Assembly (NCBI GenBank): GCA_035295465.1
Contig: DATGIZ010000035.1
Span: forward strand, 74,677-138,676
Source: Candidatus Binatia bacterium
GTDB taxonomy: Bacteria; Desulfobacterota; Binatia; DP-6
Direction of reading: 5' to 3'
DNA: 64,000 nt
Shown here: piece by piece, positions 3,720 to 21,772 of the stretch
How the letters are laid out: each line of letters opens with the position of its first letter
How positions within the stretch are numbered: position 1 is the stretch's first letter
Translations under genes and position numbers: made by a program
The notes under the pieces: model-generated
Seen by the model: the letters and a program-made list of their open reading frames with translations, nothing else
What the model was told of the DNA's origin: nothing
Database searches by the model: none

Positions 3720-4508
3720 AGAGTCTGAGGCACCCTCGAGTCCACGCCATCCGCCAGAGCGGCAAGATTCTTCACTTTTGGGCGCCGCCGAGTCGGCTGG
3801 TGACGATCCAGTCGCCCCGACTTCACGGAGAGAAAACGGAGAGCGCGAGGGTGACGATGAGGCAGGCTGACCACGAGCCGCCTTCACCACCTCAGGTCCT
3901 TGAGACGCTGCGCCTCGGCACGCGCGTGCGGCTCACTTCGGGTCGCGAGGGCGTGATCCTCCGCTGCGGCTTCAGGTGATTCGGTACGACGGCGGCGCTC
4001 TCGACTACATCGCACCGAGAGCCGAGGTCGCGTGGTGACCCTACCCGACGTCATCCCGGCATCGTCCGAAACCGCCCCGGAATCGCCCCACGGCGCTGCG
4101 CAGGGCCGGTTAGAAACCCGTGACATGCCCCGACACGATGAAAGAGGCACCCCCCGGGCTGTCACAGGTTTTCCGACGAGCCTCCCGCCAGTAGAGCACC
4201 TCGCGATAGAGCGAGCGCTCATCCGCCATTCCGCACCCTCGCGCAGGGGAAGCCGAGAGGCAAGAGGCGGCACCGTCTCCCCTCCAGCGATAGGCTTAGG
4301 AGAGCCACGGGGGCGCGCCGCGCGTCACGACAGGCCGGCGCCCGGAACCTCACCCCCCGGGGTACCCCCCGCCCAGGCCCCTCGATCGGCCATCAAGGCG
4401 CGCGGACATTTGCGCCCCGTTTTTCGGGAGCGCCGCGCCGACGCATGCTTCGAGCCGCGGCGGCAGTGCGTTGACACGGGACGGCAGGGGGCGCAGGCAG
4501 GAGACACC

Positions 4509-5321
4509 GTGCAGATTGGGCTCGTCCTGCGCAACATGGGACCCGCCTCTCGGCCGGCGACCATCGCCGCGGTAGCGTGCGCGGCCGACGCCGAGCCCGC
4601 GATCGCGGACGTCTGGGTGACGGACCACATCGCGATCCCACCCGACGACGCCGAGGGCTCGGGCGGCCGCTACCTCGATCCACTCGCTACGCTCGCCTTC
4701 GTCGCCGGCTGCACGACGCGCGTGGGGCTCGGGACCTCCGTGCTCGTCTTGCCGTACCGCCCCGCGCTCCCGACCGCGAAGTGGGTGGCGACCGTGCAGG
4801 AGCTGTCGGGCGGGCGGCTCCGCCTCGGCGTCGGCGTCGGCTGGATGGCGGCCGAATTCCGCGCTGTCGGCGTGCCGCTTGCGCGCCGCGGCAAGGTGAG
4901 CGATGCGACCCTCGACTTCCTCGACCGCTGCTTCGCCGCCGACGAGGTCGAGGCCAACGGCCAGCGCTTCCTCTTCCTCCCGCGGCCGCCGCGGCCACGG
5001 CTCTTCGTCGGCGGCGCCCCGCCGCACGCGTTCGCCCGCGCGCTCCGGCACGGAGCGGGTTGGATGCCGATCGGGCTCGATCCCGACGCCCTCCGCCCGC
5101 TCGTTGCCGGGCTGCGCGACGCGGCCGTCCGCGCGGGAGGTCCCACCCCCGAGGTTGCCGTCATGACGCGACTCCCGTTGGACGACGGCGAACGGGCGCG
5201 GGACATCGTCGCGCGCTACGCCGACGCCGGGGCAACGCGGCTCATCCACGGCGCACCGTACGAGGATGAGGCGGGCGGCCGGCGCGTGGTCGAGCGGCTG
5301 GCGCGCACGGCGGCCGGTTGA
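4509..5321 (+). CDS. LLM class (luciferase-like) F420/flavin-dependent oxidoreductase
   Basis: GTG start VQIGLVLRN; LLM-like motifs GLGTSVLVLPYR and RLRLGVGVGW; the N-terminal part of the track ORF is rejected. Confidence 0.7.
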   Translation: MQIGLVLRNMGPASRPATIAAVACAADAEPAIADVWVTDHIAIPPDDAEGSGGRYLDPLATLAFVAGCTTRVGLGTSVLVLPYRPALPTAKWVATVQELSGGRLRLGVGVGWMAAEFRAVGVPLARRGKVSDATLDFLDRCFAADEVEANGQRFLFLPRPPRPRLFVGGAPPHAFARALRHGAGWMPIGLDPDALRPLVAGLRDAAVRAGGPTPEVAVMTRLPLDDGERARDIVARYADAGATRLIHGAPYEDEAGGRRVVERLARTAAG

Positions 5322-5391
5322 GCCCGGTCCCCGCGGGCCCCCCACACCAGGTCCTTCGATCGTCCATCAAGGTCCACACGCACCGTCCCCT

Positions 5392-8307
5392 TCAGCTCCA
5401 CGCACCGATCAACACAAACGGTGCCCAGAAGTATGGCGCCGCAAGCGATTCCTCCCGGCCGAGGGCATCGCTCTGAACCGTGCGCTCCATGAGCTCGATT
5501 CGCGCTAGCCGCAGGGCGTCCGCCTTCGTTGCGCCGTCCCGCAAGTGCCTGTAGAACGCCTCCATGAACAGGCTGGTGGACTGGTCGTTGACTGGCCACA
5601 AACTCGCCACCACCGCGCGGCTTCCAGCATATAGGAAGGCGCTTGTGAGGCCGACGAGACCCTCCCCGCGGTAAAGCTTCCCCTCAGCGGTGTTGCACGC
5701 GGACAAGACGACGAGTTCAGCGTTCAGTCGAAGATCGAATATCTCCGACATTTTGAGAAAGGGGTTTTCCCCATCCGTATCGGAAAAGACCAGCGTCGGC
5801 TGGTTGATCCACTTCACATCGTCGCCAACGACCGCGTGTGTAGCAAAATGCAGGATGCGATAGCGCCTTAGGTCGATGTCCTGCAGACGGCGCTTCGTCG
5901 CTCGCTCCCGCAGATTGATCACATCGGACCCGGGAGCTACCCCGTAGAGCGAGGCGATCCGTTGCACCTCGTTGGCCGAGTACGGCAGACGGCCAAAGCC
6001 GTGGCTCATGCGCTCGTAGGTACCGCGCACGTTGAACGCCACGGCACGGCCTTCGGGAGCGGACGAATATACGGGATCACCGAAAGCGAGAAGGGGCAAC
6101 TGTGGTTGCTCCTTGCTTACGCCCTCGCTGTAGCCCCGCCTCGTCAGGAAGACCAACACCGAGGCCGAGGGGGCGTAACTCACGGCATACTGCCTCGCAA
6201 GGTACGGCACCGACGACAGCGCGGGGTTCATCCTGCCGTCAGCATGTGCCGTTGGCCGAATGAGCGCCTCGAAGGGTAGGTAGCAGAGGGCCCCGGCGGG
6301 GATAACGACGACGTGCTCCCGCCCCCTGATCTCGTCGGCCGCTGGCTGAACCAGTATATGATAGAGCCGCTGACCGAGACGGATGTGGGACTTGATCTCA
6401 TCGGGACCTATGAGCGGGGTGTCAAGCGTCTTGCGGTAGCGTGCGACGAGGTCTGCGATACGGTCCCCTCTGGCAAGGGGGAGCAGACGCACATCGGTCC
6501 GGGTGACGACCCATAGCGCCGACACTTCCTCCCCCGATGGTCTCTCGCCCAGGGCATATTCCAGCAGGATGGTGTGGTCATCAAGGAGCGCCTGCACGTC
6601 TATGATGGAGGCCGTCTCGCTTCTCGCCGTCTGGGAACGGTCACTGGCCGCATGCGAAGAAGCCGTGGACACGGCCGCTGCCTCACTGGCGACGGCAGCC
6701 TCAAGGTCGGAGTGCGCCTGGCGACCAGCGGGGACCTGCTCCGAGAGGGCCCGCTTGAGGCTGCGAACCTGCTCCGATCCGGGCTCACGTGTCTCGTTAA
6801 TCATATCCAGGAGCGTGTGAGCCTTCCCCCTTTCGAGGTACTGGAATGCTTGAATAGCGTTCCCGTCGTTCCGTCCGTTTGCCTGAAGCTTCAGAGACGT
6901 CGCGACTGCATCTAAATAGAATTGCATTGCCTCGTCACGGACTGAGAGCTGCACACGGCCAGCCCGCTGTGCATGGCCGATCCGGTCAAGGATATCGATG
7001 GCCTGCGAATAGAGCGTCAGCGCCTCGTCGAGCTGGCCTTCCTCCTCTTTCACAGAGCCCATCTCATTGAGCAGGATATAGTCGTCCGGGTCGTGAACGC
7101 GCTGATCAACACGGCGAGCCTCTTCAAGTGCGCTCCACGCCGCCCGAAGCTGTCCAACCTGCTGGTATGCCAAGCCGAGGTTGTACAGGTCGCCGGCAAC
7201 TTCGCCGAGCGCCTCACGGCTCGCACGGGCAGCGACGCGGTGAAGCGCCAACGCCAACTTCGAGCATGCGATTGCGGAATCCACGTTGCCGTTCCAGGCT
7301 TCGACTTCCCCCAGCATTTGGAGGGCCACCGCGCCGTCCGGTGTCAGGGGGAACCCGTCGGCCCCGGCTGTCGTCTCCAACCAGTCCTGCAGTAGGCTCC
7401 GCAGGCTACTGAGTGCCGTCTGGGTGCATTGGCGCGTCTGCGCAGTGTCGTCTCGATCGTTGGCGACGGATGCGAGCATTCCGAGAGCGCGAAGCTGAAG
7501 ATTCCGATCGCCGGCCTCGCTGGCTTGACCGAGCGCATCGTGGAACCATCGCTCCGCCTCGTCCAAGTCCCCGACCAACTGGTGAACCTCGCCAAGGCCG
7601 ATAAGAGCCTCTGCGGCACGCTGGTGATCATCCGCGCGCAAAAAGTCCGCCAGCGCGGAATCGTATAGCTGAAGAGCCACGTCGTACCGGTCGCGATTCT
7701 GTGAGAAGAGGGCCTTGTCGAGCACCACTTGAGCTTCAAGAGCCCGGTCTCCGGTCTCGTGCGCCACCTCTCTCGCAGTCAGGAAAGACTGCTCGGCTTC
7801 CTTAGGCTTCCCCATGGCGTCCATCACGCGAGCTGAGGCCCGCAGCGCCGCGATCTCTGCGACCCGATCCCGTCGAGCTTGGGCGCGTTTGCGCCGTCCC
7901 TCGTAGAAGCGCACCGCCTTGGCTGGATCGGCTGGGCCTTGGACATCCGCCAACTCTCGCCCAAAGAGGTCAGCTAGACGCGCCGATCTCGAGGGAACCA
8001 GTTCAGTTAGAGCATCGAGCGCATCTGTCATCCGACCGAGCCGAAGAGAGGTCCGCACCAGAGCTACCAACACGTCCGGGTTCGCCGGATCGAGCTGTCG
8101 AACGCGCTGGAACGCCTCAAGCGCCTCCTGGTTGTGGCCGCCTTTCTCGAAGGCGAGGCCGGCACGGAAACATGCCCTGGTATCCCCGCGCTTCGAGGTG
8201 CTCCGGATTGCTTGGCAAGGATCGATGGCGCTTGCCACACCGCTGGCGGCGCTCACCAGAATGCACAAGCCCAGAATTCGCGTGGTGCTCACCGCAAGCT
8301 GCGTCAC
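5392..8307 (-). CDS. secreted TPR-repeat protein with C-terminal CHAT (caspase-like) protease domain
   Basis: N-terminal signal peptide MTQLAVSTTRILGLCILVSAASGVASA; multiple TPR-like repeats; the C-terminal CHAT domain has the His/Cys dyad (HFATHAV, LSACNTAEG); the GTG start overlaps the upstream gene stop (GTGA). Confidence 0.88.
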   Translation of the reverse strand: MTQLAVSTTRILGLCILVSAASGVASAIDPCQAIRSTSKRGDTRACFRAGLAFEKGGHNQEALEAFQRVRQLDPANPDVLVALVRTSLRLGRMTDALDALTELVPSRSARLADLFGRELADVQGPADPAKAVRFYEGRRKRAQARRDRVAEIAALRASARVMDAMGKPKEAEQSFLTAREVAHETGDRALEAQVVLDKALFSQNRDRYDVALQLYDSALADFLRADDHQRAAEALIGLGEVHQLVGDLDEAERWFHDALGQASEAGDRNLQLRALGMLASVANDRDDTAQTRQCTQTALSSLRSLLQDWLETTAGADGFPLTPDGAVALQMLGEVEAWNGNVDSAIACSKLALALHRVAARASREALGEVAGDLYNLGLAYQQVGQLRAAWSALEEARRVDQRVHDPDDYILLNEMGSVKEEEGQLDEALTLYSQAIDILDRIGHAQRAGRVQLSVRDEAMQFYLDAVATSLKLQANGRNDGNAIQAFQYLERGKAHTLLDMINETREPGSEQVRSLKRALSEQVPAGRQAHSDLEAAVASEAAAVSTASSHAASDRSQTARSETASIIDVQALLDDHTILLEYALGERPSGEEVSALWVVTRTDVRLLPLARGDRIADLVARYRKTLDTPLIGPDEIKSHIRLGQRLYHILVQPAADEIRGREHVVVIPAGALCYLPFEALIRPTAHADGRMNPALSSVPYLARQYAVSYAPSASVLVFLTRRGYSEGVSKEQPQLPLLAFGDPVYSSAPEGRAVAFNVRGTYERMSHGFGRLPYSANEVQRIASLYGVAPGSDVINLRERATKRRLQDIDLRRYRILHFATHAVVGDDVKWINQPTLVFSDTDGENPFLKMSEIFDLRLNAELVVLSACNTAEGKLYRGEGLVGLTSAFLYAGSRAVVASLWPVNDQSTSLFMEAFYRHLRDGATKADALRLARIELMERTVQSDALGREESLAAPYFWAPFVLIGAWS

Positions 8308-9941
8308 TTCTGACAGACGTGAACCTGCCGATACGGTATCGTCCCTTTGGCAAGCGCGGCGATCAACTCGCCGATCATCGAGGAGAGCTTGGGCGGGTGT
8401 TCGGGCTTGACGTACCGGGTCACTGTGTCGGCTCCGGCGTCTGCGTACCCGATCAAGTCAACGATCCCGTCACAGTCCACGTCGAAGTAGAACACGGTCG
8501 TCGCGGCCTTCGACTCAATGACGGTGTCGAGGGTGTTCTTCTCGTTGCGGCCGACGACAGCGTACTTCAGGGTCCGCGCCTGGGCGTCCCGATAAATGAG
8601 CCACATGTCGGGCGGCGGGACCGTGCTCTGCACATACGCGCCGGCGATTCCATGTCCGAATCGCTCCACGCGGTAGGCCGAGGGGGAAGACGGGGAGGTC
8701 ACAGGGGCAACCCGGCTCGTTGCCCGCTTGAGGAAATTGCTTACCTCGTCAGCGGCCACCGCATAGTTCAGCCCCTCCTCGCCCTCCCGCCGGAACGAGT
8801 TGATACCAATGATTTCTCCCTGATCGTCGAGGAGAGGGCCGCCGGAGTTGCCGGGGTTGATTGCGGTTTGGGTCTGAATGACCGTGCCCTGATGGAGCAG
8901 GTTGTCGCTACCCTTCCACTGGTAGTTCGGTCGAATCTGGCTAATGACGCCCGTGGTGTAGGTCCAGACCTCCCCCTCGGGATGGCCGATCGCATGGACG
9001 TCCTGCCCCACCTCGATCCTGCCTATATCGGCCACCGGAAGCCATGGGATGGTTCCGCGTGTTGGCGTCGCGACCTTCAGGAGCGCCAAGTCTGCGATCT
9101 GATCAACCTTCAAGAGCGTGGCGGCGTAGGCGGGCTCTTCCTCGATCGACACGCCGTGCTCCGGCTTGAACACCACAGCGATCTTGTTCGCATCTTCCAC
9201 GACGTGCGCGTTCGTCACGATGTGTCCGGCGGGGTCAACGACGACACCACTCCCAAGGCTCTTGTCAGTGACGAGCAGCACGGTGGCGGGGGCGGCCTTC
9301 TTGTAGAGCGCCACATCGTTCGGCCCACGTGTCTCTTCGAGGAGCAGGGTCTTGGGGAGCTGCTCCAGGGCGGAGAGGATCTGCTTGTCGAACGGCAACG
9401 AGGCAGCGGAGGGAGGCGGGGAGTGGCCAAGGACCGCTTGCTCTTGCGGTGAGAGGTCAGCGACCTCTTCCACGCGCGAGACAGCGCCTGGCGGACCGGG
9501 CGTCAGTTGGCGAGTGATGGTCAACCCTGTGAGACGCGTGACAACGAAAACCGCGACGCACACGGCGGCGAATTCCGCGGCGATGCGGGTGATAGGCACT
9601 CGGAAGAAAGTCTTCCAAGTCATCGAGACGACATGCGTGATTCGTGTCACCCGGGAGGGTGGCACGCCGACTCGCGCCGGGGACGACCCGGCCAGAAGCT
9701 TCGCCTTCCGGACGAGATCAGCAGGAGGGTCTTCTCCTGCCTCTTCGAGGCGCGCGAGCGCTCGCAGATCCGTCTGCCGATTCGTACAAGACGGACACGC
9801 CAGAAGATGCGACTCGACCGCGCGACGTTCTTCGGGGTCCAACTGCCCTTCCAGGTAAAGCCCCAGGGCAGCCGTTGACGGACAACCCGGGGCTCTTACG
9901 CGGCCCAGCCTCCGCAGCACATCGTCCGTGATCTCTTTCAC
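8304..9941 (-). CDS. anti-sigma factor (zf-HC2), TM helix, trypsin-like S1 serine peptidase fusion
   Basis: N-terminal CPSC...HLLACPSC zinc-finger anti-sigma motif; one TM segment AAEFAAVCVAVFVVTRL; an S1 protease domain with the H/D/S triad (TNAHVV, DLALLKV, GNSGGPL); a further C-terminal domain of unknown type. Confidence 0.8.
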   Translation of the reverse strand: MKEITDDVLRRLGRVRAPGCPSTAALGLYLEGQLDPEERRAVESHLLACPSCTNRQTDLRALARLEEAGEDPPADLVRKAKLLAGSSPARVGVPPSRVTRITHVVSMTWKTFFRVPITRIAAEFAAVCVAVFVVTRLTGLTITRQLTPGPPGAVSRVEEVADLSPQEQAVLGHSPPPSAASLPFDKQILSALEQLPKTLLLEETRGPNDVALYKKAAPATVLLVTDKSLGSGVVVDPAGHIVTNAHVVEDANKIAVVFKPEHGVSIEEEPAYAATLLKVDQIADLALLKVATPTRGTIPWLPVADIGRIEVGQDVHAIGHPEGEVWTYTTGVISQIRPNYQWKGSDNLLHQGTVIQTQTAINPGNSGGPLLDDQGEIIGINSFRREGEEGLNYAVAADEVSNFLKRATSRVAPVTSPSSPSAYRVERFGHGIAGAYVQSTVPPPDMWLIYRDAQARTLKYAVVGRNEKNTLDTVIESKAATTVFYFDVDCDGIVDLIGYADAGADTVTRYVKPEHPPKLSSMIGELIAALAKGTIPYRQVHVCQK

Positions 9942-10020
9942 GGCGACCTACCCTATCCTCGCTTCCCTGAGTGAGAGGACGTCCAAGGCACGCCTTTTTG
10001 TCTCCCGGGCCGGGCTGGGG

Positions 10021-10614
10021 CTACGATCCTGCTTCAAGGACGCCTGCTCTTCTCATACAGTCCTCGACCTTGGCCTTCGCGCGGAAGTGCTTCGATGCGA
10101 CGGTCCCTTGAGGAAGATCGAACACGGCGGCGATTTCGTCGTACGGGTAGCCTTCCGCCCGCCTCAGGAAGATCTGCCGATCGAGGTCGGTAAGTTCCTG
10201 CAGACAACGTACAGCTTGGTCGAGGAGCTGCCGCATGGTGGCGGCCTTCTCCGGATCCTGGCTCTCTGGCGTGAGCCATGTTGGGTCAGGTCGAGCACAT
10301 CCGGTGTCCTCTTCGGGGACCTCGCGGCGGCGAGCCTGCGCCCGCTGATAGTCCCTGATCTTATTGGCCGTGATGGTCCGCAGGAAGGCGCGAAACTCCC
10401 ATTCCGTATCCCCGTGGAACTGGTCCAGCGCCCCTTTCGCCAGAGTCAGGAAGACCTCCTGGAAGAGATCTTCCCGGCCGGCCTGTCCTAAGCCTTGAAC
10501 TTGCCTCAGGATTCCCCAGACGAGCCGCCTGTATCGGTCAACGAGAGCCTCCCAGACTGACCGTTCGAGGCCGGCGGCCCGTCTGATGCGCTCACGAATC
10601 TCCACCGCGACCAC
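10021..10614 (-). CDS. ECF subfamily RNA polymerase sigma-70 factor
   Basis: Region 2 is DLFQEVFLTLAKG; region 4 is YDEIAAVFDLPQGTVASKHFRAKAKV; it is co-oriented immediately upstream of the anti-sigma-protease gene. Confidence 0.85.
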   Translation of the reverse strand: MVAVEIRERIRRAAGLERSVWEALVDRYRRLVWGILRQVQGLGQAGREDLFQEVFLTLAKGALDQFHGDTEWEFRAFLRTITANKIRDYQRAQARRREVPEEDTGCARPDPTWLTPESQDPEKAATMRQLLDQAVRCLQELTDLDRQIFLRRAEGYPYDEIAAVFDLPQGTVASKHFRAKAKVEDCMRRAGVLEAGS

Positions 10615-10703
10615 GGAAAAAAAACCGAATTCCCGCGTCCTTCTCCCGCAGAGAGGCGACGTCCCAAGGGGACCACGCCAAGAAGGAAAGGGAGGACTCG
10701 ATC

Positions 10704-11018
10704 ATGGGCGACGCGCGTTGGTTGAAGAAGGCCATGCTGGGGGCGGCCATGCTCTGCGTGGCATCGTCGTCCGCTTGGGCCGACGTCTACGTCCACGGCT
10801 ACTATCGCGGGAACGGGACGTACGTCCAGCCATACGTTCGCAGCGACCCGGACGGGAACCCGTACAACAACTGGAGCTACCCGGGGAACGTGAATCCGTA
10901 CACGGGTCGCGTCGCACCTGGCAACGCCGATACGTACCTTTACAACTACTACAACCGGAACGGGGGCAGTGGCTTCGGAACGCTGGATGACTCCGAAGAC
11001 GAGGGTGGCGATGATTGA
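10704..11018 (+). CDS. small secreted protein with NPY/YxxN repeats and a polyacidic C-terminus
   Basis: Signal peptide AMLCVASSSAWA; Tyr/Asn/Pro-rich repeats; tail DDSEDEGGDD; it is divergent from the ECF sigma gene and paralogous to 11738-12034. Confidence 0.55.
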   Translation: MGDARWLKKAMLGAAMLCVASSSAWADVYVHGYYRGNGTYVQPYVRSDPDGNPYNNWSYPGNVNPYTGRVAPGNADTYLYNYYNRNGGSGFGTLDDSEDEGGDD

Positions 11019-11415
11019 ACGGCATCAAAGTGTGCAGAGTCCGTCGGGCCTCCGGTCCGCATCTGTGCGGCTCGCGGGACTGGCCCTACTCATGGCACTT
11101 TCGCTGGGCGCAAGCGGCTGGGCGGCCACCGTTGCCGAGATTGCGAAGAACCCCACCGGCTTCGATCAGAAAACGGTGACGGTGAGTGGTACCGCCGAGG
11201 CGGTTAGCAGCCGCACCTCACGCCGGGGCAACCCGTATACGACGTTTCGGCTCGCTGGCCAGGGCGAGGTGGTCAAGGTCTTCAGCTTTGGGACGCTGCC
11301 GATCAAGCCAGGGGATCGGGTCCAAGTCCAAGGCACCTTTCAACACGTGAAACACGTCGGTCCTAGCACGTTCTATGACGAGATCACGGCATCGTCGGTT
11401 GAGCCCACCAAATAG
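11011..11415 (+). CDS. secreted hypothetical protein, possibly a BOF/OB-fold-like periplasmic protein
   Basis: ATG at 11011 overlaps the preceding stop; signal peptide LAGLALLMALSLGASGWAA; a beta-rich pattern of the OB-fold type. Confidence 0.45.
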   Translation: MIERHQSVQSPSGLRSASVRLAGLALLMALSLGASGWAATVAEIAKNPTGFDQKTVTVSGTAEAVSSRTSRRGNPYTTFRLAGQGEVVKVFSFGTLPIKPGDRVQVQGTFQHVKHVGPSTFYDEITASSVEPTK

Positions 11416-11457
11416 CATGACGGTGCTTTGGGGCGCGGGCCATCAAGGAGATACGAT

Positions 11458-11685
11458 ATGAGAAGGATCGTGACGCTTGGTACCCTGGTTGCAGTTGCCC
11501 TCCTCTTCTCGCCACCCGTTTTTCGACCTCACCGAGCCGCGGCGCGGTCGGGGGCGGGCACTGGCGTGCCAGCGAACGACGTCGAGAAAAGTGGCTGCTG
11601 CTCTTGGCACGGGGGCGTCTGCGGGTGCGAGGGCAACCGGGTGCAGTGCTGCGACGGCACACTGAGCCCAAGCTGCACCTGCTAG
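11458..11685 (+). CDS. small secreted Cys-rich peptide (bacteriocin/toxin-like)
   Basis: AAGGAG RBS before the ATG at 11458; a signal peptide then the mature tail CCSWHGGVCGCEGNRVQCCDGTLSPSCTC, with 9 Cys in 28 residues. Confidence 0.5.
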   Translation: MRRIVTLGTLVAVALLFSPPVFRPHRAAARSGAGTGVPANDVEKSGCCSWHGGVCGCEGNRVQCCDGTLSPSCTC

Positions 11686-11737
11686 AGCTGCGACTCTTCA
11701 CCCGAGGATCCGTCATCGAGCACGAGGAGGGGGAAAA

Positions 11738-12034
11738 ATGAAGGTTCTTCTACTGACGCTCGTTGTTCTCATCACCGGTATCACCTGGGCAGGAAGCCCC
11801 ATCGTCGTTGCACCGGATGGGACTTACCTTGGGAACTTGAATAGTAACCCATACGATCCGAACTCCGTCGCCAATCCCTACGGCCGCTACGGCAGTCCGT
11901 ACAGCCCAGACAGCATCAACAACCCGTACGGGCAGTACGGGAGTCCGTATAGCCCGAATAGCGTGACGAACCCGTACGCCGTACCTAGCCTCCCGCCGTC
12001 TGACAGCGGATTAGGTGACGACGACGAGGACTGA
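11738..12034 (+). CDS. small secreted protein with NPY/SPYSP repeats and a polyacidic C-terminus (paralog of 10704-11018)
   Basis: Signal peptide MKVLLLTLVVLITGITWAGS; repeats NPYDPNS / NPYGRYGSPYSP; tail GDDDED. Confidence 0.55.
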   Translation: MKVLLLTLVVLITGITWAGSPIVVAPDGTYLGNLNSNPYDPNSVANPYGRYGSPYSPDSINNPYGQYGSPYSPNSVTNPYAVPSLPPSDSGLGDDDED

Positions 12035-12732
12035 GGTGGGGCGCACGTCGCGAGCCGCGCCCGCAGTCGAAGGCACGACACCCTAGGGCCCATTGGGCAC
12101 ACGTCCGCCACGCGGCTGCACATGAGCGGGGTCGAGCCGGGGCGGCACCGCCAGCCGCTGGCGCCCCGAACCTCGGGGCCGCCGTGAGCAACCTGCCGAT
12201 CGTGGGGCCCACCCTCGGGCGCCTTGCCGGGGGCGTCGACAACGCCGTGGCCAACCCGGCAGGGGCCATGCGCGGCGTGCTCGGCGGCGTGGGCGATTGA
12301 TGTGAAGTTCCCCCAGTCGCCGACCGTCTTGCGACATCGGCGCCGAGATTGGCTCGTCGCTCGTCTGGGTGCTGTCCTAAGTAGGGCCGCAGGCTTGCCC
12401 ATCACAAGGCGGCCGTCCGCGTCCATGAGACGCTACGGGTGACGCCCGCAATGGCGCTTGGAGTGACGGACCATGTATGGACGATCGCGGAGTTGGTTGA
12501 TGCCGCACTCTCGGCTCCGGTACCCCCGCCGCTCCTGCCCCCAGGTCAGCAGACCCTTCCGGGCATGAGCGCGGGTCGGGCGAAGGGGACGCGCGGAGGA
12601 CAGCGGCATGGCGAGCGGCCCATACGACTTCGCGTCATCAAAGGCGGTCGAAGCGTCTGACGCAACGCTTCGGGGCCGCCGAAGCACCCCCGTTGGCGGC
12701 AGCGGCGCATCTACGCTACCCTGCCGTCACCG

Positions 12733-13212
12733 ATGCCCTATTCGGCCAAAGCAATCGCCAACTGGTTCTTGAAGAGGGACGAGCTGAGCCCAATGAAGCT
12801 TCAGAAGCTCGTCTACTTCGCCCACGGTTGGAAGCTCGGCCTCCGGGGCACGCCGCTGATCAATGAGGAGATTGAGGCGTGGGACTACGGGCCGGTGGTG
12901 CCCGACCTCTATCACGAGTTCAAGCAATTCGGCAGCGCACCGATCACGGCCTTCGCGACGCGTTGGAAGCTCGACGACGGGAAGCCGCGGTTGGTGCAGC
13001 CGCTCGTCCCGCCCGATGCCGTAGACACGCAAGCCCTTCTCCGTCGCATCTGGAAGGTCTACGGGCACAAGACCGGTGGACAACTGTCCGCCATTACACA
13101 CCTTCCCGACTCGCCGTGGAGTCAGATCCGGCGAGAGTGCAACACTCGCGGCGCCGTCATTCCTAACGAGCGCATCGCCGCGTATTTCAAGCGCCTCGCT
13201 CAGCGTCCGTAG
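12733..13212 (+). CDS. Panacea domain (DUF4065) protein, SocA/PanA-like antitoxin
   Basis: MKLQKLVYFAHGW ... EAWDYGPVVPDLY is characteristic of DUF4065; a small toxin candidate lies immediately downstream, its ATG abutting this gene's TAG stop. Confidence 0.78.
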   Translation: MPYSAKAIANWFLKRDELSPMKLQKLVYFAHGWKLGLRGTPLINEEIEAWDYGPVVPDLYHEFKQFGSAPITAFATRWKLDDGKPRLVQPLVPPDAVDTQALLRRIWKVYGHKTGGQLSAITHLPDSPWSQIRRECNTRGAVIPNERIAAYFKRLAQRP

Positions 13213-13692
13213 ATGAGCGATGAGGTCCGCCCGAAGCCTTCAACGGAGGAACCCCCGCCGAAGGCCGAGCTGGACCTCATTAAGGTCCCCGCCGAGCCCC
13301 TTCCCGAGGAGGAGGGTGAGCGTTTCGAGCGGCAGGAAGCGGAAGCACTTGATCGCGAGCGGACAAAGGAGGACCAGCTCCAAGATCGCGAGCGCCAGCT
13401 CGCGCTGGACATCAAGGAGCACGGTCTCCGTCAAGCCCGGCACGAGCTTGCGGAACGCACCAAGTACGCGGGCCGCCTCTTCAACCTCATCCTGTGGTGG
13501 CTGGTCGGGATAGGCGGGATCATCCTCCTTCAGGGATTTCATCGACTGCCGTTCTGGCCACACATTCGCTTCAGGCTCTCTGATCCGGCCCTGCTCGCGC
13601 TCATCGGAGGCACGACGCTCAACGTCCTCGGCATCTTCGTCGTCGTGGTGAACTACCTCTTCCCCAAGCGAAGAGATGGGCGAATGTTCTAA
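13213..13692 (+). CDS. small membrane protein, candidate PanT-like toxin partner
   Basis: The ATG directly abuts the PanA stop; a charged coiled-coil N-terminus and two predicted C-terminal TM helices (LFNLILWWLVGIGGIILL, LIGGTTLNVLGIFVVVVNYLF). Confidence 0.45.
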   Translation: MSDEVRPKPSTEEPPPKAELDLIKVPAEPLPEEEGERFERQEAEALDRERTKEDQLQDRERQLALDIKEHGLRQARHELAERTKYAGRLFNLILWWLVGIGGIILLQGFHRLPFWPHIRFRLSDPALLALIGGTTLNVLGIFVVVVNYLFPKRRDGRMF

Positions 13693-13815
13693 CTTCCCGT
13701 CGCGGGTGTCCGACTTTAGGACATCACCCTCGTCCGCGCGACATTGCAACGGATGCGCGTTTCGGTCTAGAAGAGGTACGTTCTCCGTGTCGGAGCCCGG
13801 GGAAGTCGTTGTGAC

Positions 13816-15390
13816 GTGAGCAATCGACGAGCGCGCGGCGCACCTCGGAGAGACCGTGCCTCCGGGCCTGAACTGGTCTTCGGCGTCGTAGGGGCCTTGG
13901 GTACCGACGTCGGCAGGCTCACGAGCACCCTACAGGAAGCACTCTCCGACTTCCGCTACACGCCTGTTCCCATTCGCCTCTCGGATCTGCTGCGCGAGTT
14001 CCCGGCTTGGAGCGGTCTGCCAAGGAGCCCGCACGATGACAGAATCGAAGCGCTTCAGAACGCCGGAAACGAGCTGCGCAAGGCCGGCGGGGGCGAAGCG
14101 ATGGCGGCCCTCGCCCTTGCGGAGATCCAGGGATACCGAACGCGTAACGGCCACGATGCGAAGAAGCCAGTAAGCGCTGCCGCGTACATCCTCCGATCAC
14201 TGAAGCACCCCGCAGAAGAGGAGCTGCTGCGAGCGATCTATGGCTCGTCGTTCTTCCTCATCGCCGCCTACGCTCCGATAGAGGAGCGGCGGAAAAACCT
14301 CGCGCGCGAGATAGCACGGTCCCGCCATGGCATGCGCCAAGCCGAGGCGCTCGCCCGGTCCGACACCCTGATCCAAAGGGACGATCACGAGCAGGATCGC
14401 TCGCATGGACAGCTAGTTAGGGACACGTTCCCGCGCGCCGACGTGTTTGTTGCAGTTCATCGCCCCGATGAGACGGTTGAACAGATGCAGCGCTTCGTCG
14501 ACTTGGTCTTCGGCCACCCGTTCCACACCCCAACACAAGACGAATTCGCGATGTTTCAGGCTCGAGCGGGAGCACTGCGATCAGCGGATCTTTCCCGCCA
14601 AATCGGTGCAGCGATTGCGACGGGGCATGGCAGCGTTGTGGCCCTTGGAACAAACGAGGTGCCCAGGGCCGGCGGCGGCCAGTACTGGTCTGGGGATCGT
14701 CCGGACCACCGAGATTTTCAGCTCGGAGAAGACGAGAGTCTCCGTATCCGTAGCAGCATGCTGGCCGAGATACTCCTGCGGATGGAAGCTGAGGGGTGGC
14801 TTCAGATGGAGGTCGGGACAAGAGTCAAACGGGACGTGGACAGGGAGGTCGGAGTCCTATTGCCCCTTCTGAGGGAGACGACCATGATGAGCGTCGGAGA
14901 GTTCGGCAGGACGGTACATGCCGAGATGGCAGCTCTCATGGATGCCGCTAGACGCGGCGTACCTGTTCAGGGCTCTACGCTCTTTTCCACCACGTTTCCC
15001 TGCCACAACTGCACCAAGCACATCGTGGCAGCAGGGATAAGAAGGGTCGTATACATTGAGCCCTTCCCCAAGAGCCGTGCGGCAGAGCTTCACGATGATT
15101 CGATCGTTGTTGATCCCTCCGGGCAAGTCGAGGGGAAGGTGAACTTCGAGCCCTTCGTGGGCATCGCGCCGAGGCGCTACCTCGAGCTTTTCACGATGCA
15201 GCGTCGTGAGAACCCTGACGGTTCGGTTGTTCGATTCACGAGGGCGGCCGCTGCCCCGCGAGTCTCGGCAACGAGGGGCTACGTAGAGACGGAAGACGTC
15301 GCGGTCGTCGAGCTTTGGAAACGGCTGAAGCAAGCTGGTATGAGGCTCCACACGCCCGAAGGAAGGCGCCGCGGGACAGTGAGGAGGTGA
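13816..15390 (+). CDS. dCMP/cytidine deaminase zinc-binding domain protein with a long N-terminal domain (anti-phage dCTP deaminase-like)
   Basis: C-terminal HAEMAAL...PCHNCTKHIVAAGIRRVVY deaminase motifs (HxE, PCxxC); a roughly 270-aa N-terminal domain of unknown type; GTG start; on the island next to a toxin-antitoxin pair. Confidence 0.62.
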   Translation: MSNRRARGAPRRDRASGPELVFGVVGALGTDVGRLTSTLQEALSDFRYTPVPIRLSDLLREFPAWSGLPRSPHDDRIEALQNAGNELRKAGGGEAMAALALAEIQGYRTRNGHDAKKPVSAAAYILRSLKHPAEEELLRAIYGSSFFLIAAYAPIEERRKNLAREIARSRHGMRQAEALARSDTLIQRDDHEQDRSHGQLVRDTFPRADVFVAVHRPDETVEQMQRFVDLVFGHPFHTPTQDEFAMFQARAGALRSADLSRQIGAAIATGHGSVVALGTNEVPRAGGGQYWSGDRPDHRDFQLGEDESLRIRSSMLAEILLRMEAEGWLQMEVGTRVKRDVDREVGVLLPLLRETTMMSVGEFGRTVHAEMAALMDAARRGVPVQGSTLFSTTFPCHNCTKHIVAAGIRRVVYIEPFPKSRAAELHDDSIVVDPSGQVEGKVNFEPFVGIAPRRYLELFTMQRRENPDGSVVRFTRAAAAPRVSATRGYVETEDVAVVELWKRLKQAGMRLHTPEGRRRGTVRR

Positions 15391-15393
15391 GTC

Positions 15394-15564
15394 ATGGTGG
15401 ACAAGGGGCAGAAGCCATCGGGCTGGATTGGTCGCAGGATGGAGGACTTGGAGCGAGAGTCGAAAGACTGGCCCATCTGGAAGCAAGAGGATCTCCGAGA
15501 GCGCCTCGAGCGTGATGGTGTGCAGTGCGTAGAGCCTTCCGATCAGCCTCGAGGCAAATCGTAG
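15394..15564 (+). CDS. small hypothetical protein (56 aa) overlapping the deaminase stop
   Basis: GAGGAGG RBS 6 nt upstream of the ATG; a charged product MVDKGQKPSGWIGRRMEDLERESKDWPIWKQEDL...; not in the ORF track (under 60 aa). Confidence 0.3.
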   Translation: MVDKGQKPSGWIGRRMEDLERESKDWPIWKQEDLRERLERDGVQCVEPSDQPRGKS

Positions 15565-15582
15565 CAGCGCGTCGACGGGCGC

Positions 15583-16167
15583 ATGCGCACCGTGGTGACC
15601 CGCGCCGACTGGCTCGGCGCCTCTGGCCCCACGAACGCGTTCCTATGGGAGCAAGTGGCGCGGCGTCGTGGCGAAAGCCCCACAGCGCCCGTGGCCGTCG
15701 TGCGGTTGGAGGACCTTGCCCCGGGTGCAAGCGCCGACACCGCCCCCGACCCGCAGCACACGGCACCCGGGGCACCAGCCGTGGCCGTGGACCCGGGCGT
15801 GCCACTTCGCCGCCGCGCCGCCGGCGCTCCTCTGGCGCTCGCGATCACGTCAACGGCGCTCGCGTCAGGGAGGCGAGTCGAGTGCCCGCATTGCGGGGAG
15901 CACTTCACGCCGGCGCCGAAGCCCGGGAAGAAACCGACGCGCCGCCTGCCACCGGATGCCCGGTTCCTCAGTTGGCTCGCGGCTCGGGGCGGCAGTGCCT
16001 CCGTGAGCAGCATCGCCCGCCGGTTCCACCTGCGCCGAGCCGAGCTTGTCGTCCTCCTCGGCCGCTTCGCCCACGCCGGTGTCGTCTTGAACCACGACGG
16101 CCGTGGTGGCGGCTACCGCTTTCACTTGCTGCGCGTGCCCGCCCGCTCGAGCGCGCTGGCCCTGTAG
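15583..16167 (+). CDS. hypothetical protein with a CPHC zinc-ribbon-like motif
   Basis: ORF only; CPHCGEHF motif; no recognisable family. Confidence 0.35.
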   Translation: MRTVVTRADWLGASGPTNAFLWEQVARRRGESPTAPVAVVRLEDLAPGASADTAPDPQHTAPGAPAVAVDPGVPLRRRAAGAPLALAITSTALASGRRVECPHCGEHFTPAPKPGKKPTRRLPPDARFLSWLAARGGSASVSSIARRFHLRRAELVVLLGRFAHAGVVLNHDGRGGGYRFHLLRVPARSSALAL

Positions 16168-16648
16168 CTGGTGCGAGGTGGGTGCGGGTTGGGCACGCCC
16201 AGCTCCGCGGCCGCATCTCGCGCACGCGCCCGGCAGGCCGCGCCATGCGGAACGCAGTCCCACCGCTGGCACTAGTCGGTACCGGTCCGGATTAGGAATC
16301 CGCGGAGCGGTTCTAGGCAGCGGAACTCCCAGGGGTTTCCAGCGCCTCTCCGCCTTCTCTCCGCGTCGCGACCAAGCCGGGCTCGCCGATCTGCCGTGAT
16401 CGCTGCTGAGGCGATCGCGAAGGGGGGGACTATAGCACTTTGGCCGTTTGCCGGGCTGGGGCACGCCCCTTCCCGGAATTACTAAAGCGGCTCACAAGAG
16501 CTTCGACGCGCTGCGTTAGCACCGAGCGCACCGAGCCCTCCGTGCACTCACGGCGTCCTCGATGGAGCCCCGACGTGCGACGTCGGCGGTGCGACGTGCT
16601 TACTCGGCCGTCGTCTCGCCGGACTGTCTCGTTCGCTCGATTCGTTTG

Positions 16649-17242
16649 CTACGCGTGCGATCGTTCGACAGCCACACTGCCCCAAGCAGGACGGCAAGTA
16701 GCAACAGCATGGTGATGACCACAAGTAGCGCATGCACCGAAAGCACGCTGAGCACCACGAAGCACCCGATGCCGAGCACGCACAGCGTCACGACCACTGC
16801 CCAGGCATACCGAATACGGCGACGGCGCGCGGATTCGCCCACGACACCGATATACGTGAACGCCTTCACCGCCTTTTCCGAAGTCGGGGTTGCGGCGCAT
16901 CGCCGCCACGGCGCGGCGGTGCCGCCTCTCGACGGGGAGACGTAAGACTGCGTAGAGTGCTTCCAGACCGGCCACGATGATCCCCAGCGTTGCGAAGACT
17001 ACGTTCTCCGCGTGAGTGTATGGTCTTCCTCCCCGGTCGAACACGAGGACCTGGACGAGCACATAGAGGACAAGGGCGACGCAGGGCGGCCAGAATGTCC
17101 ACGCGGCAGCGAGGTTGTAGCGATGCTTCGCCCGTTCGCAGGCCACTAACGTTTCGGCTAGGTCGTTCGCTTCGCGTGCACCGAACGCCAACCCGTCCTT
17201 GACTGCCTCAACGATCGTGTACCGTGAACCTTCTCGCGTCAT
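16649..17242 (-). CDS. hypothetical membrane protein (extent uncertain; the C-terminal third is probably read-through)
   Basis: Two hydrophobic helices; competes with an overlapping 89-aa membrane ORF (16600-16869) in another frame. Confidence 0.25.
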   Translation of the reverse strand: MTREGSRYTIVEAVKDGLAFGAREANDLAETLVACERAKHRYNLAAAWTFWPPCVALVLYVLVQVLVFDRGGRPYTHAENVVFATLGIIVAGLEALYAVLRLPVERRHRRAVAAMRRNPDFGKGGEGVHVYRCRGRIRAPSPYSVCLGSGRDAVRARHRVLRGAQRAFGACATCGHHHAVATCRPAWGSVAVERSHA

Positions 17243-17321
17243 GGGTCATTCCAACAAGAAATTCGCGTGGCGTCGCCGCTTCTTCGATGGAGCGTAGCTC
17301 CCCCCGCAGGGGAGCGGCAAA

Positions 17322-18107
17322 CTACTTCTTGGAGATCCCGCCTGACTTCGGCTCCAGACTCTCGCGACGCTGGCGCTCAGCATCCTCGTCTGTAGAGAAT
17401 ATGCGCGCCCGCTGATAGCGCCGAATACGCCGGCGCATCTCGTCATCGCTCCACGGTGGCCACCTCCCGGTCCTCATGTAGTGCTTGAAGCGCTCACGGT
17501 AGGTCCGTTCGACTTCGGGGAAACCACGGGCAAGCCGGCGGTCCCACCCTCTGCCGCTGGCGAGGGCCGCCCCCAATGCCCGACGGTCCTCTGGATCGGA
17601 TTGGACTTGGACTGCGCGCTCCAAGAACTGCCGCACCCGCGGGTCGGTGCAGAGTGCGATCGGCTTGAGACGAACAATATCCGCAATTGCTCGCCGAATC
17701 GCCCGCTCGACCCCTTCCAGTGCTCCCGGTGGCGTCGGCGCCGCGAAGGAGCGCTCGTATTGAGGGCGGTAGTTCTCTCGGAGGGCCAGCGCCTCGTCGA
17801 GGGCCTTGCTCGCCTCCTCCACGGTGCGCGCGGCGCCACGAATGGCTCGGCCGCTCTGCCGATGGAGCGGTCGACTTCCCACCACCTCGGCGAAGAGGTG
17901 ATCGAGCGGGGAGCCGAGCGCGCGGGCCAACCGGTTGAGGGTGCTGAGTTTGGGGTCGCCACCGCGCTCGATCGTCCCGATCTGAGGCTGCGAAACTCGC
18001 GCCTTGCGCGCGAGTTCACGAAGGCTCCACCCGCGGTCGTCGCGGAGGCGCCGCACCGTTCGACCGACCCGCTGCCCGAGTGACCCGATAGGTGGACTGA
18101 TCAGCAC
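17322..18107 (-). CDS. XRE family helix-turn-helix transcriptional regulator with a C-terminal extension (island repressor-like)
   Basis: WSLRELARKARVSQPQIGTIERGGDPKLSTLNRLARALG is a cro/C1-type HTH. Confidence 0.72.
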   Translation of the reverse strand: MLISPPIGSLGQRVGRTVRRLRDDRGWSLRELARKARVSQPQIGTIERGGDPKLSTLNRLARALGSPLDHLFAEVVGSRPLHRQSGRAIRGAARTVEEASKALDEALALRENYRPQYERSFAAPTPPGALEGVERAIRRAIADIVRLKPIALCTDPRVRQFLERAVQVQSDPEDRRALGAALASGRGWDRRLARGFPEVERTYRERFKHYMRTGRWPPWSDDEMRRRIRRYQRARIFSTDEDAERQRRESLEPKSGGISKK

Positions 18108-18225
18108 GGATGATGCTGGCGTGCAAGCCCTTGCGCCGCCTGTTCATCCTCGCTGCCGCCTTCGACCACTTTGTGCCCTGGATTCAGCCTTGGTGCCCTT
18201 GAAGCGGTGGGCTACCTCCCTACCC

Positions 18226-18456
18226 ATGATGACAAGTCCCGACCGCCTACTGACCTGCCCGGAGGTGGCACATCGGCTAGCGGTGAGCCCCTCAACCATC
18301 AGGCTCTGGACCGCGCAGCGCCGCATCCCGTCGGTCAAGATCGGTCCCAGCGCAGTCCGATACCGCTGGGACGACGTCGAGGCCGTGATCCGTGCCGGCG
18401 AGCGGCCCCGTCTCGACAGAAGCGGCCGTGAGACCCCACCGCCGGAGGCGGCGTGA
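18226..18456 (+). CDS. excisionase/AlpA-like helix-turn-helix DNA-binding protein
   Basis: LLTCPEVAHRLAVSPSTIRLWTAQRRIPSVKIGPSAVRYRWDDVEAVI is an excisionase-family HTH; it is divergent from the XRE regulator. Confidence 0.62.
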   Translation: MMTSPDRLLTCPEVAHRLAVSPSTIRLWTAQRRIPSVKIGPSAVRYRWDDVEAVIRAGERPRLDRSGRETPPPEAA

Positions 18457-18712
18457 AAGGACGAAACGCCGCGCGGCCCAGCGAGAGCACGGCGCGGCGT
18501 TCCAGCTAACGAGCTATGCGCCACCTACACCGGAAGCGTCCCCCACGCAATGCACTCCTGCTCCCGTGGGTCGAGCGTGCCCCCACCGACTTCCTCGCGC
18601 GGGGCTGGGCAATCCTGCGCGAGCGCGATCCCGATGAGGTTCGAGCGGTGGTCGATGTGGTCGAGGAGCGCCTCGCCGCCGCACGACGAGCACGGAGGAG
18701 GAATCGCGCCGT

Positions 18713-19543
18713 ATGAGCGCCGAGATGCTCCTCGACGCCGCAGTTGCCTACGCCACCCGCGGGTGGCGCGTGTTCCCGTGCTCGCAGAACAAGGCCCCGC
18801 GCACGCCGCACGGGGTTCTCGACGCGACGACCGACACCACGACTATCCGGGCATGGTGGACGAAGCACCCCGCGCCGAGCATCGGCATCGCCACGGGGCA
18901 GGGCTCCGGCTTGGTCGTGCTCGACGTCGACCCGCGCCACGGCGGCGACGATGCACTTGCTGAGCTTGGGCAGCAGTACCGGACCCTGCCGGCCACCCCG
19001 CGGGTGATCACGGGGGGCGGCGGGACACACATCTACCTGCGCCACCCCGGCAGCGTCGTCCCGTGCTCCACCGGCCGGCTCGGTAGGGGCCTCGATGTCC
19101 GCGGCGCTGGCGGCTACGTGATCGCGCCGCCGAGCGGGCATGCGAGCGGTCGGTCCTACATCTGGATGATCGGCTACGGCCCCGACGACGTGCCGCTGGC
19201 CGCTACACCCCCCTGGCTGCTCGGGCTCATCGCGTCGACAGCGGGCCATCGGTTGCGGAGGAACGGCACCGCGCTGGTCATCCCGTTCGGCGAGCGCAAC
19301 GCGACGCTGGCGCGCTTTGGTGGCCTGCTCCGGCGCTACGGCCTGAACGCGGTCGCCATCCGGGACGCGTTGACCGCGATCAACCGCGAGCACTGCACGC
19401 CGTCATTGCCCGCCAATGAGGTGGAGAGGATCGCCGCGAGCGTCTCGCGTTATACCCCGGCCCTTCTCCCGCCTTTGCACCCTTTTCGCGCCGGGACGCC
19501 GGCCGACGCGCTGGTCGCCCGGGCGCTGGGCCTCTTGCCATGA
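18713..19543 (+). CDS. bifunctional DNA primase/polymerase (PrimPol) N-terminal domain protein
   Basis: GWRVFPC...K.P...GV.DAT.D...I..WW...P..SIGIATG..SGLVVLDVD ... GGGTHIYL is the canonical PrimPol pattern. Confidence 0.85.
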   Translation: MSAEMLLDAAVAYATRGWRVFPCSQNKAPRTPHGVLDATTDTTTIRAWWTKHPAPSIGIATGQGSGLVVLDVDPRHGGDDALAELGQQYRTLPATPRVITGGGGTHIYLRHPGSVVPCSTGRLGRGLDVRGAGGYVIAPPSGHASGRSYIWMIGYGPDDVPLAATPPWLLGLIASTAGHRLRRNGTALVIPFGERNATLARFGGLLRRYGLNAVAIRDALTAINREHCTPSLPANEVERIAASVSRYTPALLPPLHPFRAGTPADALVARALGLLP

Positions 19544-21200: not shown

Positions 21201-21203
21201 GCG

Positions 21204-21539: not shown

Positions 21540-21571
21540 CGGGCGCTTGTAAGATATGACAGTATCGCCAT

Positions 21572-21769: not shown

Positions 21770-21772
21770 CCC

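Follow-up and report, generated by a model that had tools for sequence, protein, structure and literature searches.

Why should an anti-sigma factor carry a serine protease in its own ectodomain, next to a gene for a second, caspase-like protease that is apparently exported to the same compartment? The question is raised by three minus-strand open reading frames (ORFs) at 5392-10614 of a 64-kb stretch of DNA (the whole stretch analysed, hereafter the window), whose source contig comes from a soil metagenome and is placed by NCBI in a metagenome-assembled genome of Candidatus Binatia. The ORFs, which coincide exactly with the three same-strand genes called in an original prediction made from this DNA, encode a sigma factor of the extracytoplasmic function (ECF) type, a fusion of an anti-sigma factor with an S1 protease and a C-terminal domain (CTD), and an exported TPR-CHAT cysteine protease (Table 1). 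We conclude with moderate confidence that this module is a regulated-proteolysis switch of the cell envelope, which controls the sigma factor and has at its centre two exported proteases that are conserved as a pair. The evidence that carries this reading lies in the intact active sites and the export signals of the proteases, in the gene order, in an unfused form of the pair, and in promoter-like motifs.

Domain architecture of the three proteins

The first protein matches Sigma70_r2 (E 3e-11) and Sigma70_r4_2 (E 6e-13), and contains only the regions sigma-2 and sigma-4. Its match to the ECF model TIGR02937 (E 3.6e-26; 91.8 bits, cut-off 42.9) places it among the ECF (group 4) sigma factors, and the NCBIfam equivalog models all score far below their cut-offs. 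The nearest solved structure is that of E. coli sigma-E (1or7, E 4e-15), and P. aeruginosa AlgU is also among the closest. Since RpoE and AlgU are sigma factors under DegS/AlgW-type proteolysis, this proximity supports a regulated-proteolysis reading of the locus.

The second protein has over 100 homologues that are full-length and 36-57% identical to it, and the conservation reported here refers to a family alignment (A1) of 27 full-length fusion homologues covering the same identity range. The zf-HC2 match at its cytoplasmic N-terminus reaches 39.1 bits, with the cut-off at 22.2, and the zinc ligands C20, H45, C49 and C52 are invariant in A1. With an HxxxCxxC motif, an upstream fourth ligand, a transmembrane (TM) helix and an ECF sigma factor as neighbour, the protein shows the architecture of a class I zinc anti-sigma factor (ZAS). 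Judged by these features, the N-terminus is a class I zinc anti-sigma domain, which is predicted to bind and inhibit the sigma factor. On the other side of the membrane, residues 230-380 match Trypsin_2 (E 6.8e-32, 111.6 bits), the DegP/HtrA model TIGR02037 matches at E 2e-38 though far below its own cut-off, and the top PDB match is Deg1 (3qo6, E 6e-25), with HtrA, HhoA, DegP and DegS also found. The catalytic triad H246/D284/S366 is invariant in A1.

The PDZ domain that membership of the HtrA family would require C-terminal to the S1 domain is absent. The last ~130 residues, for which the Pfam scan gave no family assignment, share across A1 an invariant PPPDxW motif, a DxDCDG loop, and the cysteines C490 and C543. 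The CTD-bearing family is rare: a CTD profile retrieved only ~46 clusters (50% identity) at E<=1e-10 among 1.84 billion representatives, and the few members with an organism name belong to uncultivated lineages (Binatia, one NC10). The DVDCDG loop of the window's CTD resembles the Dx[DN]xDG calcium motif of the protease HtrAw from Brevibacillus sp. WF146 (PMC5359297). The CTD is a novel beta-rich domain, probably calcium-binding, that stands in place of the usual PDZ domain.

Homology to HtrA-type proteases begins at around residues 201-207 of the fusion, immediately after a family-specific ExTRG motif with the longer consensus LPKxLxLE-x-T-R-G; the linker before the motif is variable. The pattern E-x-[TSAG]-R-G was found in 97 of the 120 CTD-carrying proteins. 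The other 23 are mostly N-terminally incomplete fragments, and several unfused proteins with ENTRG or DSTRG variants were missed by the pattern. Separases cut after the Arg of ExxR (PMC11506125), and ExTRG, which places the Glu at P4 and the Arg at P1, has the same pattern. The near-invariant motif would thus fit a separase-type cut, and we hypothesize that the anti-sigma fusion is cleaved there.

The third protein matches the CHAT profile of Pfam at E 6.5e-67 (226 bits against a cut-off of 24), in addition to many TPR matches, and its H824 and C871 are invariant in 53 sequences. With a TPR array followed by a C-terminal CHAT domain that holds the His-Cys dyad, it is by sequence a TPR-CHAT protease. 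Its predicted structure (pLDDT 88) gave Foldseek matches between 1e-14 and 1e-12, led by Csx29 (8EEY_B, 2.8e-14) and followed by DdvA (8RW5, 9.9e-14) and separases. When the CHAT domain alone was compared with the PDB by sequence, the sole match was DdvA (8ROT_B, E 1.2e-6), with the His and the Cys aligned; a profile search with the whole TPR-CHAT alignment was swamped by TPR proteins and was uninformative compared with this CHAT-only search. The N-terminus, M...R-ILGLCILVSAASGVASA with a predicted cut before IDPC, has the n/h/c shape of a signal peptide and ends in A-S-A. Its orthologues likewise begin with what read as signal-peptide or lipobox N-termini.

The original prediction had proposed just such a set: an ECF sigma factor; an anti-sigma factor with zf-HC2, one TM helix, an S1 protease with an intact triad and an unassigned C-terminal domain; a DegS-like protease thereby fused to the anti-sigma factor, as the single 545-residue ORF confirms; and a second, caspase-like TPR-CHAT protease with an intact His/Cys dyad, co-exported with it. 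All of this agrees with the profile matches, the conserved residues and the N-termini described above. The GTGA start/stop coupling, which had been claimed for the locus, stands for the anti-sigma/CHAT junction (8304-8307) and falls for the sigma/anti-sigma junction, where the two genes are 79 nt apart.

The protease pair and the sigma factor across loci

We collected loci from homologue neighbourhoods and from a metagenome scan with a CTD profile, and then ran tblastn of the window proteins on the recovered loci. A contig scan with the full-length fusion alignment was discarded; its 80 loci (L006-L085) were all protease-domain-only matches, which arose through the generic NPGNSGGPL motif. In all 15 loci that have upstream DNA, the gene immediately upstream of the fused gene encodes a sigma factor. 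A TPR-CHAT gene follows directly 3' of the fused gene in the window and in L001, L002, L005, L088, L092, L102, L104, L106, L107 and L109, and the contigs of L089 and L093 end inside the TPR part. When fused and unfused loci are taken together, S1-CTD is followed by TPR-CHAT in 15 of the 17 informative loci. A chance co-occurrence of the genes is ruled out by this order, which is kept across homologues down to 36% identity; the trio is conserved in homologue neighbourhoods.

The survey also revealed an unfused subfamily of 418-452-residue proteins, in which a signal peptide replaces the anti-sigma domain and the TM helix ahead of the same S1 domain and CTD. Every unfused S1-CTD gene examined directly precedes a TPR-CHAT gene, the CHAT domain of which is 46-48% identical to that of the window. 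Stand-alone pairs without a nearby anti-sigma gene were found in L110, in the P0118 contig and in L111/L112; L110 has only a nearby sigma-like gene, which lacks a TM segment. Since the S1-CTD and TPR-CHAT pair exists without the anti-sigma fusion, we regard the two-protease pair as the conserved core. The idea of a protease built into an anti-sigma factor is therefore right as to the fusion, but the module is not primarily an anti-sigma factor that gained a protease. In L098 (5175-11736), four genes encode a secreted S1-CTD protein, an ECF sigma factor, a separate anti-sigma factor (zf-HC2, TM helix and periplasmic DUF4384) and a 1205-residue TPR-CHAT protein; this unfused version could be an evolutionary intermediate. 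The link to the sigma factor is made by fusion in the window and by adjacency in L098. Together with DdvA, where it is the CHAT part that is fused to an anti-sigma factor (PMC11506125), this constitutes Rosetta-stone-type evidence for an action of the two proteases on, or jointly with, the anti-sigma factor.

A strict ECF-type motif, defined as GAA[AG][AG]A-N13-18-GTC[TC] and present in 35 of 4164 background windows of 120 nt (0.84%), lies in the sigma-to-anti-sigma gap and faces the anti-sigma/CHAT genes in 12 of 15 loci, and the window, L088 and L089 have variants of it. Classical ECF promoters read GGAAC-N16/17-GTC, and the G-to-G distance of 21-23 nt in our motif matches that geometry. The presence of a promoter-like motif in the gap accounts for the conserved spacing of 60-180 nt after the sigma gene. 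Upstream of the stand-alone S1-CTD/TPR-CHAT pairs, the motif is absent.

A second copy of the motif faces a divergent gene for a small secreted protein, s104, in which a signal peptide is followed by a disordered-looking mature part with a Tyr/Asn/Pro/Gly-rich segment (GYYRGNGTYVQPYVRSDPDGNPYNNWSYPGN...) and an acidic tail. No Pfam family was found for s104. Homologues at 44-69% identity lie divergently upstream of the sigma gene in L088, L102, L005, L106, L107 and L109, and the strict motif stands upstream of s104 in all seven loci that have the gene. The s104 motif recurs in a wider family of 146 or more proteins, some of which are fused to SH3_3. The trio of the original prediction is thus real, but s104 and the ECF-type promoter motifs also belong to the module. 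Taken together, the motifs suggest that the sigma factor drives the expression of its own anti-sigma factor, both proteases and s104 from these putative promoters. We had considered a conserved T-run upstream of the sigma gene as the promoter of that gene and rejected it: in the window, just 3 nt separate its end from the start codon. The opposite strand of the T-run reads GAAAAA-N-GTC towards the divergent gene and a second copy precedes the anti-sigma gene, and the sigma-promoter reading was therefore dropped. In L005 (~7270-7330), L102 and L109, a near-consensus TTGACG/TTGAAG-N17-TATAAT precedes the sigma gene, which suggests that in this subclade the sigma factor would be constitutive and the anti-sigma factor and proteases sigma-dependent. 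A scan of 5200-12200 in the window for sigma-70 promoters and terminators returned nothing beyond chance level.

Proposed mechanism and its alternatives

In the mechanism that we favour, the zinc anti-sigma domain of the single-pass protein would hold the RpoE-like sigma factor at the inner membrane in the resting state, and the TPR-CHAT cysteine protease would be exported to the compartment of the S1-CTD ectodomain. The S1-CTD ectodomain would then be removed in response to a periplasmic cue, for which a protein that binds to the TPR array or to the CTD is the likeliest candidate. The first cut could take either of two routes: the CHAT protease could cleave between the Arg and the Gly of E-x-T-R-G, just ahead of the protease core, or the S1 domain could cut itself off when induced by a substrate. 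A site-2 (RseP-type) protease could then cleave the remaining stub within the membrane, which would set the sigma factor free; in DdvA, removal of the TPR-CHAT ectodomain exposes the protein to RseP (PMC11506125). Free sigma factor would read the GAAAAA-N-GTCT promoter ahead of the anti-sigma/CHAT bicistron, which would provide feedback and a resupply of the proteases, and it would also read the promoter of the divergent gene for the small secreted Tyr/Asn/Pro-rich protein. The candidate cleavage site and the candidate target promoters make the pathway directly testable in vitro and by reporters.

In the regulated-proteolysis paradigm, the first cut of the anti-sigma factor is normally made by a separate protease, and the module can be compared with the known systems as follows. 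First, like RseA/DegS/RseP/sigma-E in E. coli and MucA/AlgW/AlgU in P. aeruginosa, it combines an RpoE-like sigma factor and a single-pass anti-sigma factor with a periplasmic HtrA-family serine protease as the likely site-1 activity. Unlike these systems, it has the protease and the anti-sigma factor in one polypeptide, a new beta-rich domain of ~130 residues in place of the PDZ sensor, and a second, cysteine protease as neighbour; its anti-sigma factor is of the zinc type, whereas RseA and MucA are not.

Second, DdvA of M. xanthus is a transmembrane anti-sigma factor with a periplasmic TPR-CHAT part, and is paired with the sigma factor DdvS (PMC11506125, PMC6061681; PDB 8ROT/8RW5). The module shares with DdvS-DdvA the ECF sigma factor, the CHCC-type zinc anti-sigma factor with a single TM helix, the periplasmic TPR-CHAT part of separase/craspase type, and a first cut that a protease is proposed to make ahead of RseP; the sole PDB sequence match of the module's CHAT domain is DdvA, which is also a top fold match. 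It is nevertheless not of the DdvA type, since its TPR-CHAT protease is a separate exported protein and the ectodomain of its anti-sigma factor consists of S1 and the novel CTD. The active site of DdvA lacks a three-helix motif. The CHAT domain of the module covers the full Pfam profile with both dyad residues, and its apparent regulon comprises the module and a small secreted protein rather than a CBASS/CRISPR island. DdvA is the only studied anti-sigma factor with a CHAT ectodomain, and its self-cleavage is putative; the module offers a natural split arrangement in which CHAT protease, serine protease and anti-sigma factor are genetically separable and occur in fused and unfused forms.

Third, in Craspase (gRAMP/Cas7-11 with Csx29, which cleaves Csx30) and in CalpL-CalpT-CalpS, proteolysis of an anti-sigma-like protein frees an ECF sigma factor, and by fold the module's CHAT protein matches Csx29 best. 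The original prediction had drawn an analogy to these systems (Craspase-Csx30-RpoE and CalpL-CalpT-CalpS), which turns out to be loose: they are cytoplasmic and triggered by CRISPR RNA or cyclic oligoadenylate, whereas both proteases of the module carry export signals, and DdvA-DdvS is the closer analogue. The module belongs to neither of them, with no CRISPR-like repeat array in the 64-kb window and Pfam matches of the three proteins that include neither a SAVED nor a Lon domain; this agrees with the original prediction, which had stated that a CRISPR or SAVED sensor is absent. The module works like RseA/DegS and DdvA, yet belongs to neither. It would bring caspase-like TPR-CHAT proteases outside the cytoplasm into partnership with an HtrA-like enzyme. 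We found no description of an S1-fused anti-sigma factor, of the ECF/trypsin/CHAT trio or of the S1-CTD/TPR-CHAT pair in the searchable literature, which is incomplete and does not extend to the ECF Hub group descriptions; contexts with CHAT or trypsin are not mentioned in the main text of the ECF classification (Casas-Pastor 2021).

Several points weigh against the switch that we propose. The ExTRG motif might just as well play a structural part in the protease or belong to its trimer interface. The gap motif of the window itself (GACAAAAA) fails the strict pattern. No site-2 protease gene turned up in the window, where no search was aimed at one. Two loci of the family, L096 and L108, have no CHAT gene. 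Finally, the stand-alone pairs lack an anti-sigma factor, which implies that the pair has a transcription-free function, and the link to the sigma factor may be a secondary read-out.

The best surviving alternative, which we consider possible but unlikely, confines the signalling to the fusion: the S1 domain alone would sense envelope damage and cut itself, as RseA and DegS in one chain, and the CHAT protease, outside signal transmission, would be induced by the sigma factor and work in the periplasm as an effector that serves quality control or attacks foreign proteins. The motif directly ahead of the anti-sigma/CHAT bicistron is consistent with the CHAT protease as an output of the sigma factor, and the stand-alone pairs could be two proteases at work without a sigma factor. 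Substrate-induced self-removal of an anchor is also documented, in that membrane-anchored HtrAw removes its own N-terminal anchor with substrate (PMC5359297); unlike the fusion, HtrAw has an anchor that is not an anti-sigma domain, has a PDZ domain and has no CHAT partner. However, TPR-CHAT follows S1-CTD even where there is no sigma factor, which points to a direct partnership rather than to a regulator and its target. Furthermore, TPR-CHAT is itself the sensor domain of the anti-sigma factor in DdvA (PMC11506125), and the conserved ExxR-type site fits a cut by a CHAT/separase protease.

Still more tentatively, the pair may be a horizontally mobile periplasmic surveillance device of two proteases, in which the CHAT protease, upon binding a foreign or damaged protein via its TPR array, would cut between the Arg and the Gly of E-x-T-R-G and so release or activate the HtrA-like enzyme. 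For members of the fused subfamily, this cleavage would at the same time be the site-1 event that frees the ECF sigma factor. If true, a caspase-to-serine-protease cascade would operate outside the cytoplasm and feed into transcription.

A sensor of DdvA type for phages or other invaders is improbable. The TPR-CHAT/S1 pair would detect a phage or toxin protein that crosses the envelope, and the sigma factor would turn on defence, for which DdvA-DdvS is a precedent (PMC11506125). The island around the module does hold a dCTP-deaminase defence gene (E 4.6e-152) and a Panacea-type toxin-antitoxin pair, and other module loci lie near IS66, DUF3854, HTH_17 or toxin-antitoxin genes, but several others lie amid ordinary metabolic genes. 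In the 64 kb of the window the strict motif occurs only within the module, so that no defence effector is visibly part of the regulon. The PADLOC matches of the trio stayed at the generic level of domains, with RT-Protease_XI covering the protease part, one TPR model and, weakly, BovA, and none was to a curated system; no relatives were found on viral contigs, and the window has no CRISPR-like array. The role in phage defence that had been suggested for the module is thus supported by nothing beyond its neighbourhood. The weakest alternative, that the two proteases mature or degrade the divergent small secreted protein(s) as a signal, adhesive or antimicrobial peptide under feedback control by the sigma factor, has in its favour the same position and promoter motif of s104 in seven loci and its signal peptide and disordered-looking, acidic-tailed mature part, but is very improbable, as s104 is absent from L001, L002, L108 and all stand-alone pairs, has common relatives elsewhere without these proteases, and contains by inspection no ExxR-type site.

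The island and neighbouring genes

Table 1 Features of the module and its surroundings, with positions in the window
Feature	Position	Strand	Evidence or remark
ECF (RpoE-like) sigma factor, 197 aa	10021-10614	-	Pfam/NCBIfam profiles, nearest PDB structure, locus survey
Anti-sigma / S1 protease / CTD fusion, 545 aa	8304-9941	-	Pfam and NCBIfam, homologues, alignment A1
Cytoplasmic zinc anti-sigma motif (zf-HC2), residues 24-52	9786-9872	-	zf-HC2 E 7.9e-10
Single TM helix, ~residues 117-139	9525-9593	-	Sole hydrophobic peak, Kyte-Doolittle 19-residue mean 2.08
Candidate cleavage site, family-specific motif E202-E-T-R205-G206	9324-9338	-	Just N-terminal of HtrA-homologous core
Periplasmic S1 (HtrA/DegS-like) protease domain, H246/D284/S366	8712-9323	-	Pfam, NCBIfam, PDB match, A1
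Family-specific CTD, ~130 aa, all-beta plus one helix	8307-8696	-	PPPDxW motif, Dx[DN]xDG-type loop (DVDCDG), C490/C543
Exported TPR-CHAT (separase/craspase/DdvA-type) cysteine protease, 971 aa	5392-8307	-	Pfam, alignment, predicted model, Foldseek
Predicted Sec signal peptide, residues 1-27 (...VASA, then IDPC)	8227-8307	-	Read from sequence
CHAT caspase-like domain, residues 644-969, H824/C871	5401-6378	-	Pfam CHAT profile positions 3-289/289
Variant ECF-type motif (GACAAAAAGGCGTGCCTTGGACGTCCT; halves GACAAAAAGG...GACGTCCT)	9976-10002	-	In the 79-nt gap, facing anti-sigma/CHAT
ECF-type promoter motif GAAAAAAAACCGAATTCCCGCGTCC	10616-10640	+	Faces divergent small-protein gene; only strict match in the window
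Small secreted Tyr/Asn/Pro/Gly-rich protein s104, 104 aa, acidic tail	10704-11018	+	Fourth conserved gene of the module
Further small secreted ORFs (134 aa; 85 aa, Cys-rich; 98 aa, NPY-rich)	11011-12034	+	ORFs, signal-like N-termini
Low-GC integrative element	~5350-23220		Composition (left end), integrase and tRNA-Leu
SocA/Panacea-domain antitoxin	12733-13212	+	E 6.8e-20
159-aa protein, charged N-terminal half, two C-terminal hydrophobic segments	13213-13692	+	Start adjoins antitoxin stop
Cytidine/dCMP deaminase-domain protein, 524 aa	13816-15390	+	PADLOC dCTP-deaminase ('dCTPase') model, E 4.6e-152
HTH_3 repressor	17322-18107		Island gene
Prim-Pol	18713-19543		Island gene
DUF3987	19540-20790		Island gene
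HTH_17	21204-21539		Island gene
Tyrosine integrase	21773 to ~23100		Abuts tRNA-Leu(taa) 23134-23221

The module lies at the left end of a block whose G+C content (0.62-0.64 over 6-12 kb) is markedly below that of its flanks, as had been noted from the letters: it is 0.70-0.72 in the left flank and 0.69-0.80 past 22 kb. The G+C content at third codon positions is ~0.75 in the block and ~0.95 in the host genes. We did not find an att direct repeat of at least 14 nt for the island, and its left border is set by composition alone. The tyrosine integrase with the tRNA-Leu gene, Prim-Pol/DUF3987, HTH_17 and the dCTP-deaminase bear out the earlier view of a mobile island with defence-like genes. By its profile match, the 524-residue deaminase is a nucleotide-depletion anti-phage defence gene on the same island as the module, and the two adjoining genes at 12733-13692 probably form a toxin-antitoxin pair of PanA type, in which the toxin would be a membrane protein. 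The module is an accessory, mobile trait.

Such a module is easily missed in annotated data. Its public names are only 'CHAT domain-containing protein', 'trypsin-like peptidase domain-containing protein', 'sigma-70 family' and 'hypothetical'. In addition, the JGI gene calls start both large genes too late (439 of 545 residues and 810 of 971 residues), and the NCBI calls give 545 and 966 residues. Since the late JGI starts drop the anti-sigma domain as well as the signal peptide and the first TPRs, the architecture is hidden from annotation-based surveys.

The small ORFs at 11011-12034, which are possibly co-transcribed with s104, have no homologues beside other modules and no Pfam or PADLOC matches. 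Of the plus-strand ORFs 11428-11685 and 11738-12034, one ends in a Cys-rich segment (CCSWHGGVCGCEGNRVQCCDGTLSPSCTC) and the other contains repeats of NPYG/SPYSP ahead of a DDDED tail. The divergent cluster of one subclade encodes a conserved multi-pass membrane protein of ~150-184 residues (YSLWPT..DE.AAILAARQGFHAA), which lies on the minus strand in L002 (6727-7281), L106 (4351-4815) and L107 (4264-4716), just past the s104 homologue in L106 and L107.

A gene for a luciferase-like monooxygenase (Bac_luciferase) is found near or beside the CHAT gene in four differing loci, namely the window (4032-5321, plus strand), L005 (13316-14356), L109 (7780-8814) and L002 (16338-17569). This recurrence may only reflect the abundance of such genes in the hosts, and the copy in the window has the G+C content of the host. 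Finally, a tRNA-SeC gene (anticodon tca) is predicted on the plus strand at 27430-27524, where the window consists of high-GC host DNA, which implies selenoprotein synthesis in this Binatia genome.

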